Source: Octopus vulgaris (lineage: Eukaryota). From it: a stretch of 64,000 nt of DNA. A program made the translations under genes and the position numbers. Under the pieces are notes generated by a model. That model saw only the letters and a list, made by a program, of their open reading frames with translations. It did not search any database and was not told where the DNA came from. Of this stretch, positions 6,780 through 54,750 are shown piece after piece (position 1 is the first letter of the stretch; every line of letters begins with the position of its first letter). The stretch lies in assembly GCA_951406725.2 (NCBI GenBank), contig OX597822.1, forward strand, positions 98,270,001 through 98,334,000, written 5' to 3'.

Positions 6780-7480
6780 AACATAATTTAGCCGATACGA
6801 TCGACCAGAATTCTAAACTGGTACTTTATTTTAACAAACCAGGTGGGGCGAAAGTTAAAGTAAATCTTGGCAGCATTTAAAATAACAATAGCAATAATTC
6901 TTTCTATTATAGTCACAATTCCTGAAATTTCGGGGAAGGGGAATAATTAAGTTCATCGTCCCCGGTGTTCAACTGGTACTTAACTTCGAAAGCATGAAAA
7001 GCAAAATCGACCTTGGTGGAATTTGAAGTCAGCATTTTGTCTTGCGTGTTAACAATTCTGGCATCTCACCGTCTTAGTGATAATTGTTTCGAATTTTGGC
7101 AGAATAGTAGTAATTTCGGGAGAGAGTTTAAGTTGATTACATCGATCCCAGTATTCTACTGGTATTATTTTATCGTTCCCGAAAGGGATAAAAGATAAAG
7201 TTAACATCGGTGAAATTTTAACTTAGTGAAAATGGACGAAATGCCGCTAAGCATTAATCCCGGCGCGACAACAATTCTTCCAGCTCACCACCCCACTATT
7301 GCTACTAATATTAATCCCTTCAACTATATGCACAAGACCTGAAATTTTGGTGGAGGGGACTAGTCGATTACATCGACCTCAGTGTTTCATTGCTTCTTAA
7401 TTTATCCATCACAAAATAATGTAAGTCGAAGTCGACCTCGGCGGAATTTGAACTCAGAATGTAGCGACATATGAAAAAAA
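6780..7480 (-). mobile_element. Cluster of old SINE family 1 copies with tail type A
   Basis: Repeated degenerate gaaaggcaaagtcgacctcggcggaatttgaactcag bodies, each followed on the sense strand by ...aaatttcagg.cttgtgc.tatag..gaa.g.attatt-like tails. Confidence 0.7.
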
Positions 7481-8258
7481 CTATTTCTTTACTACCCACA
7501 AGGGGCTAAACAGAGAGGACAAACAAGGACAGACAAGCGGATTAAGTCTATTATATCGACCCCAGTGCGTAACTGGTGCTTATTTAATCGACCCCGGAAG
7601 GATGAAAGGCAAAGTCGATCTCGGCGGAATTTGAACTGAGAACGTAGCGACATATGAAATACCAATTTCTTTACTACCTACAAGGGGCTAAACAGAGAGG
7701 ACAAACAAGGACAGGCAAACGGATTAAGTCTATTATATCGACCCCAGTGCGTAACTGGTGCTTATTTAATCGACCCCGGAAGGATGAAAGGCAAAGTCGA
7801 TCTCGGCGGAATTTGAACTGAGAACGTAGCGACATATGAAATACCAATTTCTTTACTACCTACAAGGGGCTAAACAGAGAGGACAAACAAAGACAGGCAA
7901 ACGGATTAAGTCTATTATATCGACCCCAGTGCGTAACTGGTGCTTATTTAATCGACCCCGGAAGGATGAAAGGCAAAGTCGACCTCGGCGGAATTTGAAC
8001 TGAGAACGTAGCGACATATGAAATACCAATTTCTTTACTACTCACAAGGGGCTAAACTGAGAGGACAAACAAGGACAGACAAACTGATTAAGTCGATTAT
8101 ATCGATCCCAGTGCGTAACTGGTACTTATTTAATCGACCCCGGAAGGGATGAAAGGCAAAGTCGACCTCGGCGGAATTTGAACTGAGAAAGTAGCGATAT
8201 ATGAAAAACTGCTAAGCACTTCGTCTGGCGTGCTAACGATTCTGCCAGCTCACCGCTT
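7481..8258 (-). repeat. Tandem array of four 182-bp SINE family 1 units (tail type B) behind one SINE head
   Basis: aggggctaaac recurs at 7501, 7683, 7865 and 8047 (period 182); tRNA-like head at about 8205-8258. Confidence 0.9.
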
Positions 8259-19756: not shown

Positions 19757-22209
19757 GGTATTTCGTCTGTTTTTACGTTCTGAGTTCAAACTCCGTTAAG
19801 GTTGACTATACCTTTCATTATCAATGTATTGCAATTTCCTATAATATTTACTAGTTGAATAGTTTTAATCTATATATTTTTGTAAAAATTGTGCTTCGAA
19901 ATGTATGGAAATTATGTGTGTGGGTAAAAGGAAAACGAATGCTCATATTTCAACGGTATTGCAAATTTATTGAACGTCAGTTTTATTTTACTGATAAGCA
20001 TTATTTTACAGTAATTGATGTCCAACAATTTTAATGCAAATTGTCAAGACGCAAGGTGTGAAATTCTGACCACTGCTATTGTGAACAACAGATCGTGCCA
20101 AAGTTTATATTTGAGATATTTCCGCTAACTAACAGATGACCACGACCATTCAGGTAGACTGGTGCTATTGGCAGCGATACACAAGATGAAACTGATAACC
20201 TACGAAAGTTAATGATGGAGGACAGATATTCCTGAGGAGGTGTTGTGAAACATATCTCAGTGGTGGCCATTTGCAGAAGATATAATTCTCACCATTCTAT
20301 GACAGTTTCAAAGCAATAATCCCATGAAGCAAATAAATAATGCAAACATTGAATACGTTTGAAACGGTGTGAAGAAACGAGCATCTAGTTTTGTCGTTCA
20401 TTGACACTATGCTATTGGAATACAAATTTAGCCTCATTTCACACTATTCAGCAATTCTCATTTTGCATCAAAACCAAATATTTCTACATTTTCCGTCGAT
20501 TACTAAACTATTAGATAACGTCTATTCACGTTCTACAAAGGTCTCTACTGAATAAGGTTCAATGTTCCGTATCAAGTGAAAAGAACAGGTTAAAATAAAA
20601 TTATTTATTTCTCTATAAGTCAAATAATTATCAATATTCGATTGTTAGTTTTCTAAAATTGTTGCATCCTGTGAATGATTTGCATTTTTTTTTTTTTTAC
20701 ATTCCACCACTTAATGCTTTCAACATTTGTGAGAATCGATAATCACATGGTTAGAAATTAAAATGATCAATCAATTTTGATTAGATTCTTCGATAGTACA
20801 GACAGGCGTAAAGAAAATTTCAATCCCTTTAACATCTGCTGTTGTGATCGATTCAAAATGCCAATCAAATCTTCGGAAATGCTTCATATTCAAGAATATC
20901 CCAGGAGAAATATATTGACTAAGTACTGCATGAGTTGTCGTGGTTCATTAAATCAATAAACATTTTGACGGAATCTGAAAGACTCGCCATTGATACATCA
21001 ACCATATAAACCGGTACTAAAACAATTCAGTTTTGAAAGTACTGAAGACAATGTGAACAACTGAAAAAAGATTTCATTTGAAACTATATCACGATTGACA
21101 GAATTATAAGAAAACTTAAATTTCTTCCCTGCACACTCAGCAAAATAAAAAAGAAAATAGGAGAAAAATCTTCTCACTAAGGAATTTATATATTAGTCTA
21201 ATCATCGGTCGTAAAGTAGCGTAAAATGATGGATAGCAGGAAAATTATGCAAAAATTTAATATGTTTGAATTAGCGTTGAAAGATGCGCCTTCATTTTTT
21301 GTTTCCTTTTACAGCATAAATCTGTCGAAGTTAATACGTAATCTTCAATGTGACATACTGTTTTGTTTAGAAGTACAATTTATTGCAGTGATATATGTAT
21401 ATTACATACGCTCACAGAACAACCAGTAAATAGTATAAGAAAATACAATGGTATTTGCAATACAACGATATTGTTGGTAATTTCATATATCATAACCAAT
21501 TTAATTTCATCATTTCGGAAAAGGCCAAACTGTAGTAATGTCTTATTTACTGAATAGATAAATTTCTCCATTGCATTATTTTATTGCTACAGATGTAGTA
21601 GGCTATCTGAAATCATTTGGCCAAATCCAGCCTAGCACATCTGAGTTCTTTGTCAGTAGCAAAGATAACCATAAAATTGGTTTTGCCGATATACTTTGTA
21701 ACAAATAGGGTCACTTTGGCGGAGCACACTTTTAGATTCGTGTGCAACAATTTCTTGCATGAACTTAGCCATTGATTCCCAAAGTGTGCACCAGTTCCTC
21801 GAACTATGAGGTTATTGTCTCCGAGCGTATACCTGATGTATAAGAGAAAGACTCGAGCATATATTTGGTACATTTTCATTTAATTCATACGCTGAATGAG
21901 ATTGGATGGATGATTTCAACTGTTCTGTATGTATTTTTTCTCAGATCACACACTTGCAGCTTTTGTTTGTTTGCATATATGCGTGAAAGGTTCTGTAAGT
22001 ATTTTATATAAGGAAAAATTGCTTGTGACTTCGATATTTACATCCATGTTTCAAACGTTTCACTTCAGTACGCCCCTCACATATCATTGTCTGTTTTCGA
22101 GTTATCTACTCCTAATCTTACTCTATCCATCAGCTGAATAGTATCATGTTTGTCGCTTTCCTCAATCTTCACATTTCCATCTACCTCCGGCTTACATACA
22201 CAGAATCAT

Positions 22210-22243
<34 letters not shown>

Positions 22244-22810
22244 ACAATAAAGGAACGGCCATAATAGGCCATTCACCCACTAGAAATAACAGCCAAAGCT
22301 TCAACCGCAAATAAAAGTTAATTCAGTAAACCAGGAGAAAATTTAAAAAACATTTACCCTGTAATTTCTTATACGATATACCGTTTCATCTGCTGATTAA
22401 TGGTAAACTAACCTGATTAAATTACAGGGTAAATGTTTTTTAAATTTTCTCCTGGTTTACTGAATTAACTTTTATTTGCGGTTGAAGCTTTGGCTGTTAT
22501 TTCTAGTGGGTGAATGGCCTATTATGGCCGTTCCTTTATTGTTGATGTTGAACTTAAAAATGGTCTTTGACTATTTTAATTTTTTTCCTACTAGGCCGCT
22601 GGTGGCAAAAGAATTCTACAAAATTTTTTTTTGCCACCCTATATTGATTAATTATGAATTTTCTGGTTAATTCCGTAATGGAATCGACGGCTTATATTTA
22701 TTTGCTGCCGATAAATTTGGCGCGAGTGCGACGATTTGAAAATTTTAGGTCAGATATTAACTTGGCAACGTCGGAAATGCCTCGTGAAAATATCTGTTCC
22801 GTCTTGGGCT

Positions 22811-22917
22811 ATTTCTTACTGAAGAATCTGAGGGCCTGTGGAAGATTGGCTTGATTTAATTTAATCAGGTTAGTTTACCATTAATCAGCAGATGAAACGG
22901 TATATCGTATAAGAAAT
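22811..22917 (+). ncRNA. Type I hammerhead ribozyme with long loop 2 (family B, unit 1)
   Basis: AUUUCUUA-CUGAAGA-AUCUG-(58 nt)-CAGAU-GAAA-CGGUAUAUCG-UA-UAAGAAAU; 8-bp stem I, 5-bp stem II, near-palindromic stem III, predicted GUA cleavage after 22909. Confidence 0.85.
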
Positions 22918-23304
22918 TACAGGGTAAATGTTTTTTAAATTTTCTCCTGGTTTACTGAATTAACTTTTATTTGCGGTTGATGCTTTGGCTGTTATTTCTA
23001 GTGGGTGAATGGCCTATTATGGCCGTTCCTTTATTGTTGATGTTGAACTTAAAAATGGTCTTTGACTATTTTAATTTTTTTCCTACTAGGCCGCTGGTGG
23101 CAAAAGAATTCTACAAAATTTTTTTTGCCACCCTATATTGATTAATTATGAATTTTCTGGTTAATTCCGTAATGGAATCGACGGCTTATATTTATTTGCT
23201 GCCGATAAATTTGGCGCGAGTGCGACGATTTGAAAATTTTAGGTCAGATATTAACTTGGCAACGTCGGAAATGCCTCGTGAAAATATCTGTTCCGTCTTG
23301 GGCT

Positions 23305-23411
23305 ATTTCTTACTGAAGAATCTGAGGGCCTGTGGAAGATTGGCTTGATTTAATTTAATCAGGTTAGTTTACCATTAATCAGCAGATGAAACGGTATATC
23401 GTATAAGAAAT
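23305..23411 (+). ncRNA. Type I hammerhead ribozyme (family B, unit 2)
   Basis: Same sequence as 22811-22917 shifted by 494 bp. Confidence 0.85.
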
Positions 23412-23915
23412 TACAGGGTAAATGTTTTTAAATTTTCTCCTGGTTTACTGAATTAACTTTTATTTGCGGTTGAAGCTTTGGCTGTTATTTCTAGTGGGTG
23501 AATGGCCTATTATGGCCGTTCCTTTATTGTTGATGTTGAACTTAAAAATGGTCTTTGACTATTTTAATTTTTTTCCTACTAGGCCGCTGGTGGCAAAAGA
23601 ATTCTACAAAATTTTTTTGCCACCCTATATTGATTATATATATATATATATCAGTTAGTTCGTACAACACAACCAGTTTCTTATCTTTCAAGATAATATA
23701 GGTTCCATAAATTTAGAACTAAGACATCCTGCATTCTAAACTGTAGGAGTCACCTACAGGTTGAATCAAAGCGTATCGGTGATTGCAAAGATTTTAGAGT
23801 CTGAAGAAGTAGACAAATGGGGAAATTTCGAAGTTACTGTCAACATTCTTATATTAGTAAATTTGAAATTTTACTTAAATATATTGTATTATCTTTAAAC
23901 GAATGTTTGCATGCG

Positions 23916-23955
<40 letters not shown>

Positions 23956-25383
23956 TATATATAAAACACACATACCTTAGGTATATATATATGTTTACTT
24001 TCTGTTTTAATAATGTGTGTGTATGTTTGTATTTTCCTACTTAAAGTGAATTTTGTCTTTTCTTTGGTATTTAAGCGTGCTGATATCATTTCACGAATGT
24101 GCGCTTGCAGTTTTCTATGCTCTTCAACATAAGTAGCAAATGTATACATGTGACAGAGTACGAACATTTAAGAAAACCATTTGATAATATACATTGTCCC
24201 ATGTGCCATTAATTAATTTGATACGTTCATATTTATGTTCGTACGTATGTATTGCACTGCATTTGACTATTATTAACTAAAGCACTTCAACATCATTGAG
24301 AAGATCCTTGACGCACGCTGACAGCTGATACATAATAATTTTATAATTTTAAAATAGAAAATAACAAAATATTTTGTGCTTGTAGTTGGTAATATGATTA
24401 CTTCTATGCGATTATGTCCAAATAGAGTCTCTCATTTTAATCAGTTTCGAAACATATGCAACCAAAGAATTTAAATTTTTATTTCTCCCTTGAATTTTAT
24501 ATTATTGATTTGCATATAACCTGGAATATAGCTGTTTCAGAATATAATATACAATGTATTTATCAAATCCATTTATAACTTCTTCAAGATCTTCAACGTA
24601 TTATAGAACACTATTTGAATTTATCAGGGAAGAATTTAACGCGCCTTCACTATATCATTTATATCTCTGCATCAGCAATATTTGAGACATTAATATGATT
24701 AATCGATTGGCAGATTCTTTTTTTTCTTTCGTACTTATCTAATATCACTCGTATGTTAAGTCAATTATTGTATTTTTCTTGAATTTATATTCACACTCAA
24801 CGAATCAGCAAACGTCATATACTTTATTAAAAACAAAATTGGTGTGAGCATTTCCATTTGTTAGCATTATTAATTTAATAATTTGCTTAATATCCTGGCG
24901 TTCTCACAATCATATTAGCTGAATCAAATGTAGTTTCCGACATGTATACATACATATCTTTAAAAAATACGCTTCTTGACTCTTCTACTACTGATTATTT
25001 ACTCGCAGTAATCGTTAACAATGAACTAACTTGATTCTTTTCCCATAGTGATCTCCTAGCACAGAATTATTTTGTAATCATTAACTTCCAATGTCCCGAA
25101 GTAATCGATTATTTGAATTTCACTACAACATGAATTTACTCCTTAGAGCCCCATCGCAAGATTATAGTTTAATCGGTTTCGTTCAGAACATTAAGCCATT
25201 AGCTAATTCCGCTTGCTGCTGGGAGAACTGTATCACCATACATTTAATGTTGCCTTTGAGCGATTGGAAAGATATAGCCAAATCAATGGAAATTTGTCAA
25301 TTCATTCTTTGGCATTTGTCCTTTATATTCCCGCGAACGAAGCATTTATTCCCAAACACCTCATTTTATCGAGAAGTAGGTTA

Positions 25384-35589: not shown

Positions 35590-35845
35590 TGCTTAAGGGA
35601 AAGTTGGACAGGATCACCAGCGCCAACCTCATTGAAGTGCAGTTCTGCTTGCAATGTTAGGGCTACCACAAAGAGAGAAGAGCAAAGACTGGTAACGGCT
35701 CAAAGAGCCATGGGAAGGTCAATGCTTCGTATCTCGTTGAGAGAGCACATAAGTAGCGAGATCATCAGAAAGAAGTCCGGCGAGAGAGATGTCATCGCAG
35801 AGTATACACGCAGCAAGTATAGATGGGCTGGACACGTCGCCCGGC
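35590..35845 (+). pseudogene. RTE-like LINE ORF C-terminal fragment
   Basis: EEQRLVTAQRAMGRSMLRISLREHISSEIIR....KYRWAGHVAR. Confidence 0.8.
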
Positions 35846-36211
35846 TCACCGAGCTTGTCTCCAAATATCTTGACCGTGTCCTTGCCCCCTGGGGTGGCTT
35901 CTCTCCATTGTCACATCCATGACACCATCCGTGCGCTTCGGTTGTTCAATTCTCCCTCCTTTCCTCCTGGCCCCTCTAAACTTCTCTTCACTCTCGACAT
36001 CTAGAGCATTTAGACGGTGATCCCTCACCACGAGGGGCTGCGTGCACTCAAACACTTCCTTGACCTCCGACCCAACCTCCAACCCGATACCTCTACACTG
36101 GTTCGTCTGGTCGGACTTGTCCTCTCACTCAACAGCTTCTCGTTCGCGGGCGATTTCTACCAGCAGTTTTCGGGAGTGGTCATGGGAACGAGAATCGGCC
36201 CCAACTATGCG

Positions 36212-49560: not shown

Positions 49561-51987
49561 AACTTTCTTTATTGGCCACCTGAGGCTGAACACAGAGGGG
49601 ACAAATACAAATGTAGAGCTTTTCTTTTCGAAAATGAAAAAGAACATGTAAAACAAAAAGAGAACAAGTATAAAATTCTGATCAAAAGGGATCGGAAATA
49701 AAAACGATCAAAAGGGATCGTGTATCACAGAAGAACTTTTTAAAAAGTAAGAAGCAAGATTAGCGTTATCCGTGGAAAGAAAAACCTACGGAAAAGACCA
49801 CGGTAGCCTCAGGCAGGGAAGAATTAATACATGAGAGTAAGGTGCTCTCTTTCTCTCTGACCGATTTACAGGATCATGTTCAAAATGGTTTCGCTGCTCG
49901 CACGCACCATCTTTGCTACATTCACCCACCTTTTTTGAAACTTTCACGGGACAAAACTTGCCTCTCCATTCTCACCTTCCTTTTCAAGTGGTACTTGAAA
50001 AAGTTGATGAGCGATTGGCCAGAGAGGTAAGTGTTTGTCTCTAATCCTTTTGCTCGAGTCCACCACACACATTTTTCACCATGGCCAACAGTACGATGAA
50101 GACCGCCTTGCCTTCCCAGTTGAGGGAAGGTAGCGGAGGAATCAGCACGACAGACTCGGCCGATAGGCGGACTCGTCTCAGACGTAACAGCAGCCGTTCG
50201 GCATAAGCCCACACGTCCGAAATGGTTGGACACTGCATGAGTGCATGCAGCACAGTTTTGTCGCTCTGACCGCATCTCGGGCAAGTCGGTCCGCTGTGTC
50301 CCGAACCGTGCCTGTAGAGCTTATCCCGAACAGGTAATGCTTCTCGATAGCACTGCCAGGCCAGAGATTTTTGGTGATTGTCCACATAGGTCCCAGCCAT
50401 AAAGTTGTCCTGAACAGGCGGGTCAGGCGTTTCTTGTCGACGCCCAGATTCGGCCCAGGAACGTCCTCTATAGAACGCCTTTGTTGCAATGAAGCCGCCC
50501 ACGTTTGGTCCCGGACGGCAGTGTTGCTTGAGAGCAACGCAACACGCGCGGTGCCATTCGCCTAGCCTCGGTCTCTGTTTGATCCACGACTGTAGTTCGG
50601 CCAAGGAGACGAGCTGCAGGAAAGCGCGCCGCACAAACGGCGACCAACCTGCTTACCGTCGTCTATGAAGCGCCTGAGATGTCGCAGTCTCAGCGCATGT
50701 CTACGCATTATCAACTACGGCATGTCTAGCCCTCTATTTAGCGGGTGTTGACAGCAAATGGATCGCCTAACCATCGGAACGCTTCCTTTCCACAGGTAGC
50801 GGAAGAGTATGAATTCCAGTTTGGTGATGGTAGGGGCGGGTCAAGGCACGACGGTCAGACGGTCGATTTGTTTGTAGATCGACACTATGACGGTGACGTC
50901 GTCCGCGTATGCAGACACGCTCCTGCCGCATCCCAGCTCTCGTGGGATGCCCCTCAGCGTCGCCAGCTTCTGCAGTAGTGGTTCAAGACTTAATACATAG
51001 AGAAGCGACGAGAGGGGGCATCCTTGACGAACCAAACGCATGATGTTAAATGGTCTGGATAGATGACCAATTACGCGAATTACCGAGCGGATGCCGCTGT
51101 ATAAAGCAGCGATCCAATCGCGGAAGATGGAACTGAAACCAGCCACTTTAAGGACAGCCTCCAAGTAGTGATGGTCTACCCTATCGAAGGCTTTTGATTG
51201 ATCCAAATTGATCATGCAAGGATCCTGTCTATGATGTAACGCATCAGATGGAGGTTGTCATGGATACTCCTACACGGTACGGTGCACGTTTGCGCCTTGT
51301 CGACTAGCTTCTCGATGACAAGCGCCAACCTCTCGGCTAATACTTTGGCCAAAATTTTTTAATCTGCTTTGAGCAGAGTGATGGGCCTGAAGTTATCTAT
51401 GACGTCCCCCTTGTTTGGATCTTTCTTTAGCAGTGCCACTGCTCCTCGCTTTACAAAGACGGGGATACTTCCCTTTGCTGTCAGTTGCAACAGACTACTG
51501 CCATGACGCCTCCAAACAAGTCTGGCATATGACAATAAAGTTCGTAGGGCAGACCATCTAAGCCTGGTGACTTGTCTCTCGCGCATCTTGCCATCGCATC
51601 CTGTACGTCCGCAGCCGTGATGGGTCTTTCACGGCACTCCGTCTCTCTTGCTGAGAGTCGTGGCAGGCCATGCAGGTAGGCACTAAAGTCGTCTCTGCGT
51701 TCTGACCCACCAGTTATCCTGAACAGTCAGGCAAAGTGTTGTTGAAAGGCCTCACACATGCTTTCAGGCTCGAGTAATTCGCGCCCCTGTTCATTTGTAA
51801 GTAACCTAATGGTTGCTCTGTTGCCTCGTTGCGCCTCCACCACTCGAGCCTCTCGGGCAGCTCCAACTCCTTCACCCTTCAGAACACACATCGTAGCTCT
51901 GACAACGCATCCTTCGTGTTTGGCGTTGAGGTGTTGATTGAGGGCCAATTCTAAGTGCCTCTTCTAAATTCTTAACTAGGTCTCCAG
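49561..51987 (-). mobile_element. 5'-truncated, internally deleted Tx1/L1-like LINE
   Basis: NFRPITLL, INLDQSKAFDRVDH, VRQGCPLS, AYADDV RT motifs; CPRCGQSDKTVLHALMQC zinc finger; tail gtcccctctgtgttcagcctcaggtggccaataaagaaa. Confidence 0.9.
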
Positions 51988-52080
51988 GTAGATATGTAGA
52001 TAGATATGTAGGTAGATATGTAGGTAGATATGTTGATAGATATGTAGGTAGATTTGTAGGTAGATATGTAGGTAGATAGG

Positions 52081-54750
52081 TTTCTTTATTGGCCACGCTG
52101 GGCTGAATATAGAAGGGACAAAATACAAAGTAGAGCTTTTCTTTATGGGAAGAAGAGAAGGGAAAAAGGAAAAAAGAAAAAAAGGGTCGAATTCCGATCA
52201 AAAAGGATCGTGTAAAAAAAAGTGGGGCCGATCAATAGGGATCGTGTATCACAGAAATGTCAATGTAGAAAGAGAAAACAGATTAGGTTTGTCCGTGGAT
52301 AGAAAAGCCTACGGAAAAGACCACGGGAACCTTGGGCAATAGTGTCAAGTAAAAAGAAAACACATTAAGTGGCTCTCTTTTTTCCTTTCGTTTTTTTTTC
52401 CATTTGGTTCATAGGAATATGCTCAAGCTGACTCCGTTATTCACACGTGCCATCTTTTTTTGAAGCATTCACTAGACAAAATTTGCCCCTCTAGTCTCAC
52501 CTTCCTCTTCAAGTGATACTTGAAGAAGTTGATGAGAGATTGACCAGAGAGGAAAGTGTCTATAAATCTTTCAGACGCGTCCGCCATACACATTCTTTCG
52601 CCATAGCCACAAGTACGATGAAAATGGCCCTTCCTTCCCGTTTCAATGAAGGAGACGCAAAAATATATACGATATTGACGGACCGAATATGGAATGTCGA
52701 AAGGTCTCGATAGATGTCCATTTACGCAAATTACGGAACGGATGCCTCTGTACAAAGCAGCTATCCAGCCGCGGAAGACGGGACCGAAACCAGCCGCTAT
52801 GAGGACAGCCCCCAAGTATTGATGGTCTACTCTATCTAAAGCTTTGGGTTGATCCAAATTGATCAGGGCCACACCCATGCCAGATTACATAACTACCCTG
52901 TCTATGATGTAGCGCACCGGTTGAGGGTTGTCATGGATGCTCCGGCTAGGCAGGGCGCACGTTTGCGCCTTGTCGACCAGTTTCTTGATGACAAACCTCT
53001 TGGCCAAAATTTTCCTGTCTGCATTAAGCAGAGTGATGAGCCTAAAGTCGCCTGTTATGTCCCCCTTGTTTGGATCTTTCCTCAGCTCCTCGGCTCACAA
53101 TACCGGGGATACTTCCGTTTTTCAGCCAGTTGCAGTACACTGCTGCCAAGACGTCTCCAAATAAGTCTGGCAAGTCTGGCATACACCTGTAAAGCTCGTA
53201 GTGTAGACCATCCAAACCCGGCGATTTGTCCCTCGAGCATTCTGCCATCGCGTCCTGCACTTCCGCCACCGTGATGGCACCTTCGCAGCACCTTGCCTCT
53301 CTTGGCTAGAGTCGTGACATGCTGTGTAGATAGGCACTGAAGTCTACCCTGCGTTCTCGCTTGCCACTCGTCCCGAATAATCAGGCAAAATGCTGTTGAA
53401 AGGCCTCACACATTTTACTTGGCTCGAGTAATTCGCGCCCCTGTTCATCTACCAGATCCGAATGGTGGCTTTGTTACCTTGTTGTGCCTCCGCCACCCGT
53501 CCCTCTAGCGCAGCACCAACACCTTCGTTCCTTAGAGCACGCATCCTAGCTCTGACAACACACTCTTCGTGTTTGGCGTTGAAGTATTGGTCGAGGGCCA
53601 ACCTCGCCGCCAAAACATCGGGTACGGTGCCACTTCTAATCGCCTCTTCTAGCTTCTTAACTATGTCACCCTCTACCCTGTTTCTATCTATGACTATTGC
53701 TTTGCTATACTTAATCGCTTCTGCTATTTTTGCTCTCTTAAGGGTAAACCACCAGTTGTTGTTAATGGCTCCCATCAAAGCCTTCTTTACTAGCGTACTA
53801 ATACAGTCTCTGAAAGCCTGTCTCGACGGGAAGACGCGTTTAGTTTCCAGTACCCGGGACTCTGCCTATGTGTCTTATCTAAGTCTAGCGTACACGTCAC
53901 AAGTTTGCGATCCGTGTAGTTGACCATGTGGAATTGTGGACACCCTACGCTATCTCTATCTACTGCCCTGCACAGTATCCTATCTAGATACGATCTCGAC
54001 AACCCGGTGCGGTTGCTCCACGTCCATGTTGGCGCATTCGGGTGGTCGAGTCGGTACCTGTCAGACAGTTGAAAGCATCTGAGCAGATCTCTGAGGCATT
54101 TGCATCCTCGTCTATTCCTATCTTTGCCCACGTAGTCTAGATGCCTGTCCAAGGTAGCATTCCAATTTCCCGCTAAAAGTAAGGGACGTTCCTAGGAATA
54201 CTTCTACACATCGAAAGAAATCCAGCCGACCTGTTAAAGGTGGTGCGTAGATTAATAGAAGTCGAAAAGAGCACCCATTGCTGCTGTCGTCATCCGGGAA
54301 GACCAGTCTACCCTCCGGGTCTGCGAAATTTGTCTTTACTTCGAGATCCAGACTCTTGCGAAAAAGTACCGCCGTGCCACTACCGCCCATTCTCAGCAGA
54401 CAGGGAAAAAAATAAATGTTAAACTGTCCACCAAACATGGACTTTACGGCCCTTGGATAATGGAGTCTGGTCTCACTTATGGCTATGATTTCTAACTTTT
54501 GTGACTTTATTTCATTTAAGAGTTTCCCTTGTTTGCAAGGGGACCCCAAGCCACGCGCGTTCACACAACCAATTTGATCATAATCCTAGTGAGTTAAAAC
54601 ATAAATGAAAGGAGCAACATTGTTGTTGATGATGGCTCCCATCAAAGCCTTCTTTACTAGCGTAAAGTTTTTGCTTTCTTCTCCTTCAGTTTGTCGTCGA
54701 GGAGATCCCAATAATGTTTTTGTGAAAGGTATTTCTGGCATTTACCAGAA
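52081..54750 (-). mobile_element. Internally deleted Tx1/L1-like LINE (APE plus partial RT)
   Basis: GCVNARGL..ISETR, IYAPP, TWTWSN..SYLDRI and PGYWKLNAS (APE), KSPGLDGL, INLDQPKALDRVDH; same tail type. Confidence 0.9.

Follow-up and report, generated by a model that had tools for sequence, protein, structure and literature searches.

How does a short tandem array come to begin almost exactly where a ribozyme encoded in its own units would cut, behind an inverted piece of itself and inside a microsatellite? This question is raised by one locus of the window, i.e., the whole 64-kb stretch of octopus DNA that was analysed here. The original prediction, made from the letters alone, described a young retrozyme tandem of about 2.5 almost identical 494-bp units, and TRF indeed reports period 494, 2.5 copies and a 99% match for 22419-23636. 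The array comprises 2.46 near-identical units with spacings of 495 and 493-494; the differences between them are one substitution and T-run indels, and most copies of the family elsewhere carry one T fewer than the window unit (493 nt). The element is non-coding, as no stop-free frame of at least 120 aa overlaps it, it has no LTR pair, GC is 0.33 over 22001-24000, and the 494-nt monomer folds with z = -4.9. Both outer ends run into (TA)n, as predicted, and at the place of a target-site duplication (more than 4 bp when present) both ends of the insertion sit inside this microsatellite. Unit positions are counted from the first base past the predicted cut (position 1 = window 22910), with the cut after unit 494; the A end is unit 132 and the B end unit about 230-244. 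The features of the locus are:

22213..22240, no strand: (TA)n target microsatellite, left flank (TRF and sequence)
22240..22424, minus strand: inverted arm ("A arm"), 185 nt, unit 442-494 plus 1-132, 99% complementary to 22857-23041; its outer end, 132, is the family's fixed first end
22419..22424, no strand: 6-nt microhomology at the head-to-head junction, where inverted and direct arms overlap (sequence)
22419..23636, plus strand: direct arm ("B arm"), unit 5-494, 1-494 and 1-235, with the second fixed end of the family as its outer end
22811..22917, plus strand: type I hammerhead 1, cut after 22909; stem I 22811-18/22910-17, stem II 22826-30/22889-93, core 22819-25, GAAA 22894-97, hairpin loop 2 22831-88 (58 nt), self-complementary 10-nt helix III segment 22898-22907
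22910..23403, plus strand: complete monomer between the two cuts, predicted 494-nt RNA
22993..23042, plus strand: hairpin A, unit 84-133 (RNAfold and end mapping)
23096..23132, plus strand: hairpin B, unit 187-223, 13 bp, directly upstream of the second fixed end
23305..23411, plus strand: type I hammerhead 2, identical to hammerhead 1, cut after 23403
23637..23651, no strand: (TA)n target microsatellite, right flank (sequence)

In the window copy, site 132 accounts for 185 nt and site 235 for 1218 nt. Its cut after 22909 had been projected back one period to a cleaved 5' end at 22416; the cut itself stands, whereas the projected position is 22415, because unit 1 holds an extra T. The direct arm starts 4-10 nt past this point, a range being given because the two arms have 6 nt in common. 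The near-match of array start and cleavage site is real, but at a single locus it is weak evidence, a 28-nt window amounting to 5.7% of the unit. The inverted arm, predicted at 180 bp, is present as well and crosses one cut site (unit 442 to 132). As argued below, it is probably no decoration of the 5' end, but a second, independently primed arm with a fixed end of its own.

The ribozyme was sought with a type I hammerhead descriptor on both strands of the window, which yielded exactly two matches, with the core CTGAAGA at 22819 and 23313, 8 bp in stem I and 5 bp in stem II, i.e., an intact motif with a 58-nt loop 2 in each complete unit, as had been claimed. CUGANGA, GAAA, an NUH triplet and three helices closed by stem I are all present. 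Rfam at its gathering threshold gave no match in the whole window, and the ribozyme call therefore rests on descriptor, folding and covariation. The hammerhead-constrained fold reaches -28.1 kcal/mol, compared with -31.4 for the unconstrained monomer, i.e., 3.3 kcal/mol lower, and loop 2 folds into a long hairpin. The helix III segment pairs with itself at -10.2 kcal/mol, and two copies folded together are predicted to form a dimeric hammerhead. This corresponds to the mode described for metazoan type I motifs in the accessible part of PMC4209133, in which a short helix III with a palindromic loop permits a dimeric fold.

Among 258 full copies (51 distinct), N7 is the repeatedly variable core position, where A, G, U and C all occur, and the cut triplet is GUA or GUC. 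In older copies, a stem II pair has changed from G-C to A-U, and the centre of the helix III palindrome is altered on both sides. Across 12 chosen copies, 97.7% of cells pair and 2/18 pairs show a two-sided change, figures of modest weight, as the rows are related and the structure was taken from the window copy. In a sister family, stems I, II and III are replaced while core and layout are kept, with a 52-nt loop 2, a palindromic helix III and a GUC cut. Helix covariation and the sister family support the predicted ribozyme.

The window copy belongs to a family that was surveyed in the 2.8-Gb genome holding the window. A unit search gave 240 matches within the 39 scored of 941 candidates, with 96-100% identity among the matches listed. 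The exact 26-mer spanning the cut occurs 764 times, the exact A end 186 times, and 710 forward-strand matches were obtained for the B-end pattern, which would correspond to about 1,400 B ends; on the reverse strand, repeated matching inflates the counts. The copies are dispersed over many contigs. In a set of 99 loci (38 fetched from the unit search, the window, and 60 anchored at the A end), substitutions from the majority amount to 260/101,283 unmasked sites, i.e., 0.26%, a figure that omits two common SNPs, homopolymer tracts and ends; the family is as young as predicted, and older copies at 84-99% identity are also present. The sister family has a unit of about 467 bp, 65-71% identical to this one, with 2550 candidates and 92-97% identity among its own copies (e.g., C6:103416000-103417250, L200; also L041 and L201-L203). 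With at least two consecutive tandem units carrying a complete type I hammerhead, no coding capacity, low GC, no LTR pair and a monomer of a few hundred bp, the window feature is, by its sequence, a member of a young, dispersed non-LTR retrozyme family with Penelope-type ends. We hold this identity, together with cleavage in vivo, with high confidence. Parts of the element are covered by contigs from four runs that were guessed to be RNA, and in two of these runs individual contigs span a cut site; the contigs may derive from DNA, and they were set aside as evidence because contigs cannot reveal ends, strand or circularity.

The family's insertions are head-to-head two-arm structures with one end at 132 and the other at about 230-244 on the opposite strand, and all 93 loci with two typical ends have one of each. 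Of 39 loci picked without regard to their ends, 29 have A and B, five A only (one of them ending in a gap) and five B only, two of the latter with an atypical second end (68 and 470). The 60 A-anchored loci divide into 47 with both ends and 13 with A only. No A+A or B+B pair occurs among these 39 + 60 loci. Because anchoring hides one homotypic class, two control sets were added: 13 C1 loci with a cut site and without the exact A pattern (9 A+B, 3 A only, 1 B only), and 13 insertions on 12 B-anchored stretches (8 A+B, 4 B only, one running off its stretch). Neither set contains a homotypic pair. Some A-only loci retain a B remnant too short for alignment, and an apparent 8-kb B/B pair on C1 is really two separate A+B insertions. 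The sister family has two homologous ends in six BLAST pairs and one fetched locus; one of its loci is B/B.

Each fixed end sits just 3' of a predicted hairpin. Hairpin A, at the base of which lies unit 132 (23041), is a candidate binding or priming site, and a priming role is likewise conceivable for hairpin B, which shows a compensatory change in the sister family; both roles are modelled from fold and end position. The tail between the two sites, about 100-110 nt, is found at one end only. TA runs of at least 8 nt flank 92/94 A ends and 73/82 B ends, and 76/99 loci have an inverted, 5'-truncated head-to-head copy. Inverted copy, one-sided tail and microsatellite bias together bear out the earlier suggestion of Penelope-type insertion. 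At the 76 head-to-head junctions, the arms overlap by at least 2 nt in 31 loci, are blunt or share 1 nt in 15, and are separated by inserts of 1-10 nt in 12 and by longer ones in 18, some of which are iterated AT-rich copies.

The most informative breakpoints are the inner ends of the arms. A survey of 5' breakpoints in other copies had been proposed along with the original prediction, and it was carried out on 78 exact-A-end loci of C1-C7 with 138 arms, one gapped locus being excluded. Arms stop within unit 492-25, a 28-nt window set after inspection of the data, at 36/119 first arrivals and 9/102 later arrivals (Fisher p=9e-5); other 28-nt windows have a median of 3.1% and a maximum of 7.3% stops. 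Expressed per 1000 nt, first-pass stops number 14.3 at unit 492-16 and 9.9 at 17-25, compared with 1.0 at 26-132 and 0.8 at 133-245, and the later-pass rate at 492-16 is 4.4. The effect at the cut is tenfold, despite a window chosen post hoc. Later-pass stops are in excess too (9 vs. 3.0 expected, p=0.0035). Moreover, the two arms of an insertion behave alike: both stop at the cut in 13/61 loci and one in 7 (p=1.6e-7), and crossing of the cut is also correlated between arms (p=3e-6). The stops are scattered across unit 492-25 and do not fall precisely at 1, and those of the B arm cluster at 22-23, in an AT-rich quasi-palindrome. Sequence context alone gives no full account of them, because the same sequence stops only 9/102 later arrivals. 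The simplest reading is run-off from an RNA with a ribozyme-made 5' end, with some trimming at joining, and the breakpoints thereby support self-cleavage in vivo. The window locus itself falls in the weaker, later-pass class and is compatible with a 5'-cleaved oligomer, or with a circle that had been cut again or at whose cut site copying paused.

These breakpoints also bear on the view that the repeat is a satellite or foldback element spreading at the DNA level, with the hammerhead as a passenger or chance motif. The lack of Rfam matches and the position of both ends in unstable (TA)n would suit such an element. Breakpoints concentrated at the cut site of the ribozyme, on the strand predicted, helices that covary while the core is kept, and fixed outer ends combined with variable inner ends in copies dispersed over many contigs would not, and we consider a purely DNA-based origin very improbable.

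An RNA origin leaves two ways to make the second arm. Two primings on one RNA, one at each fixed end, appear quite likely to us. In the other scheme, reverse transcription is primed once, the first cDNA folds back and primes itself, the inverted arm is copied from this cDNA, and an endonuclease trims the product at 132; self-priming and an endonuclease-made tail have been put forward in the accessible parts of PMC3846280 and PMC8557442, respectively. Fold-back would explain common haplotypes and one-of-each ends without a second priming on RNA, it agrees with the 55/76 loci in which one arm is contained in the other, and it predicts the near-palindromic junctions that are indeed in excess (12/63 vs. 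4.0 expected, p=5e-4). Such junctions would also arise, however, if both enzymes reached one template end. In the remaining 21/76 loci neither arm is contained in the other, which fold-back could not produce without later deletion; the A arm is the longer one in 34/76 loci and extends further 5' than the B arm in 10/13 double-stop loci. As the sole route, fold-back is therefore rather improbable, although it may contribute, or both enzymes may meet one template break. Two pairs of loci have recurrent inner ends: in the unrelated L071 and L128, both arms start at unit 469, in a quasi-palindrome 26 nt ahead of the cut, and L095 and L098 have a common 217/220 junction. Fold-back hotspots might account for these, or else a second end of the RNA. 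Separately, inner arm ends in L085, L048 and L041 adjoin sequence that is unrelated and not TA; the stretch of other sequence in L085 measures about 80 nt and extends up to (TA)n, possibly a captured RNA serving as second arm.

Two primings on one RNA, which we prefer, raise the question of what the template was, and haplotypes address it. SNP 343 is uniform within 46/46 multi-copy loci and agrees between arms in 34/34 (chance 0.50 per pair), and SNP 153 is uniform within 48/49 loci and agrees in 34/35. Fixation of minor alleles spans the two arms and up to 10 copies; for example, every unit of both inverted arms carries the allele in 9/9, 5/5 and 8/8 copies. Alleles each fixed in a single sampled locus are 452G, 311A, 142G, 439G and 181A (both arms) and 462G (one arm). 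Most within-locus variable sites (97/105) are one-copy outliers. The remaining eight variants occur in six long arrays, in some units only and several at 2- or 3-unit spacing, which suggests later local duplication, multimeric templates or assembly effects. The 252 crossings of the cut have eight nearby variants, two of them indels, and such near-clean crossings favour, without proving, a ligated monomer circle; a circular-RNA monomer route for retrozymes is proposed in the accessible part of PMC7229834. With two indels near 252 crossings, end-to-end template jumping between linear monomers is unlikely as the main source of multimers. A single case at L066, near 3540, has a 6-nt duplication exactly over the cut site, possibly a template jump at a cleaved end.

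Within an insertion, a single haplotype is found in the two arms and in almost every unit, as for a circular monomer template, which suggests to us, from the DNA, that circles probably do serve as templates. The same element and priming sites could also operate without a circle, if linear, partly cleaved oligomers were copied and long arms grew by local tandem duplication. The later-pass excess at the cut shows use of 5'-cleaved oligomers, the window copy is consistent with such a template, variants at 2-3-unit spacing are found in L033, L039, L059, L093 and L119, and local amplification is proposed in the accessible part of bioRxiv 10.64898/2026.07.22.740005. However, alleles fixed in all units of both arms would need a single-unit bottleneck, and 1/86 within-locus variable sites is common to both arms (many may postdate insertion). 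The drop in stops from 30% at first to 9% at later arrivals moreover indicates a second, end-less class of template. A scheme with no circle at all is unlikely in our view, whereas local duplication also contributes to long arrays; indeed, the partial-unit variants in the six long arrays count against one monomer circle as sole template.

A non-coding element depends on a protein encoded elsewhere, and the two-ended (TA)n insertions point to Penelope-like elements (PLEs). A search for the GIY-YIG domain gave 148 matches from the best 150 of 6136 candidates. Among them is an intact PLE family, of which 16 loci were fetched (L159-L174; e.g., C16:20834300-20841300), with a stop-free 781-aa frame encoding a reverse transcriptase (E 1e-6) together with a GIY-YIG domain at the C terminus (E 4e-7). 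The cysteine linker of the protein has what we take to be a Neptune-like look. The family is young, with a unit of about 4.8 kb, a 40-nt tail and repeats with TGACGTC-like motifs past the ORF. At all 16 loci the element terminates in (TA)n, at one site in 12 and 40 nt further in the other four, and in two loci with an inverted arm the long end is on the main arm and the short end on the inverted arm. The scan found no canonical hammerhead in this family's own repeat, and comparison of the retrozyme unit with the 16 full-length loci (best E 0.65) and with the coding element at 30 GIY-YIG loci (30 of the 148 matches; 6136 candidates) showed no significant similarity. By sequence, the 781-aa protein combines the right target and logic with a dissimilar unit, and it is a candidate partner. 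Another GIY-YIG sequence, a remnant at L089, lies 1.1 kb away from an A end; we regard this proximity as coincidental, because other repeats lie in between and the remnant has a (TA)n end of its own.

Several neighbouring repeats are recorded here in their own right. Within the window, 35792-36211 holds a degenerate PLE reverse-transcriptase fragment among TA tracts (tblastn E 3e-9, 27% to the 781-aa protein), and 50041-54585 (minus strand) holds broken LINE pieces with AP-endonuclease, RT and zf-RVT Pfam matches. A 182-bp unit at 7429-8206 forms 4.3 tandem copies (95%) in which ARAGORN finds no tRNA, and presumably resembles a SINE of octopus genomes. Type I hammerhead-like motifs unrelated to this family are found at L160 (minus strand), L132, L136, L164, L167 and L171; the genome probably holds several ribozyme repeat families.

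Taken together, the locus is best read as a young, non-autonomous non-LTR retrozyme mobilised in trans by a PLE, whose enzyme would prime twice on one linear-cleaved or circular RNA; we consider this reading probable. Tandem copies would be transcribed, and adjacent hammerheads would pair via the self-complementary helix III and, as the copy ends suggest, cut after unit 494. Cutting would release monomers and oligomers that are linear and have a cleaved 5' end, and ligated circles would probably arise as well. A PLE RT/GIY-YIG protein, presumably acting as a dimer, would nick both strands of a (TA)n tract, and the two nicks would prime reverse transcription on a single RNA at two fixed positions, each lying directly 3' of a hairpin: unit 132 and about 240. 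If the template were linear, the two cDNAs would run off near the cut and leave short palindromic stumps, whereas on a circle or an uncut oligomer the cut would be crossed repeatedly, giving multimeric arms. The cDNA ends would then be joined head-to-head by microhomology or by an insertion-prone form of end joining, and the window copy would be such a two-armed product. Several observations count against this reading: the excess of near-palindromic junctions, as predicted by fold-back self-priming; the atypical ends (68, 470) and the B/B locus of the sister family; the spread of stops over unit 492-25; the lack of significant similarity between the unit and the PLE loci compared; an unconstrained monomer fold below that of the hammerhead; and an anole PLE that, in the accessible part of PMC11167929, has neither strand bias nor need of its ribozyme in vitro.

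A bolder version is offered tentatively. A dimeric enzyme might hold one small circular ribozyme RNA by two hairpin sites about 108 nt apart, one per nicked strand, and two reverse transcriptases might follow one another around the circle while displacing strands, as a bidirectional, twin-primed rolling circle; the cleaved or ligated state of the RNA would then decide between a dead stump and a self-propagating array. In the literature searched, such a mechanism was not found to have been shown.

How does the family compare with known systems? It resembles animal non-LTR retrozymes, as far as the accessible parts of their descriptions go, in its tandem units, which are AT-rich and non-coding and each carry a type I hammerhead (PMC7229834; bioRxiv 10.64898/2026.07.22.740005), in its dispersed dimers to multimers, and in the mobilisation by PLEs via circular RNA that is proposed there. 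It differs from described retrozymes by its 493-494-nt unit and structured 52-58-nt loop 2. The unit had been called long for an animal retrozyme; this holds against the 150-450 bp given in the accessible part of Cervera and de la Pena (2020; PMC7229834), but not against the 51-972 bp in that of Li et al. (bioRxiv 10.64898/2026.07.22.740005). The fixed two-arm head-to-head architecture and the breakpoints at the cut were not found in the accessible parts of retrozyme descriptions. No paper on this particular family emerged from a literature search conducted mostly outside subscription journals and Repbase/Dfam.

With EN+ PLE insertions, as presented in the accessible parts of PMC8557442 and PMC3846280, the family has in common a head-to-head inverted arm, a microsatellite target, microhomology junctions and two alternative 3' ends with a tail on one side. 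Unlike those elements, it has no ORF, its tail measures about 100-110 nt where theirs has 30-40, multimers can occur in both arms, either of which may exceed the other in length, and one-of-each ends are found in all 93 typical two-ended loci. The closest biochemical precedent is the anole Poseidon element PAc, for which the accessible part of PMC11167929 reports reverse transcription starting internally in vitro, at two sites that define the tail and lie downstream of the hammerhead cut, as well as a predicted dimer. There, the ribozyme is dispensable, no RNA-seq ends fall at the cut, and the start site is not strand-dependent. An AT-rich target is a feature of the octopus family as well, and so, in the reading preferred here, are two internal start sites and the extension of both strands. 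Unlike in PAc, its genomic ends cluster at the cut, and its two sites are split between strands. In LINE-1 twin priming, a single RNA is primed from both target nicks, and joining of the cDNAs by microhomology gives a 5' inversion; in the octopus family, by contrast, the second site is fixed and the overlap between the arms can be as long as several units, so that strand displacement or a circle is required.

That the tail is the span between two start sites of reverse transcription is already known (accessible part of PMC11167929); the octopus family differs in the length of its tail, in the strictness with which ends are paired, in having arms that are multimeric on both sides, and in the accumulation of ends at the cut. 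The closest retrozyme and PLE literature, in its accessible parts, was not found to contain breakpoint or haplotype evidence of this kind, and the origin of inverted and tailed insertions, hammerhead cutting in vivo and the use of circles as templates for reverse transcription are described as open questions in those of PMC8557442, PMC11167929 and PMC7229834. The value of the family lies in what its copies show about mechanism: it is young and numerous enough for insertion ends to be counted, and it provides genomic evidence that cleaved RNA is used, that each two-armed insertion derives from one RNA and that the start sites are strictly divided. Now that an RNA of 493 nt, a pair of priming sites, the (TA)n target and a candidate PLE protein have been named, these points can be tested directly in vitro.
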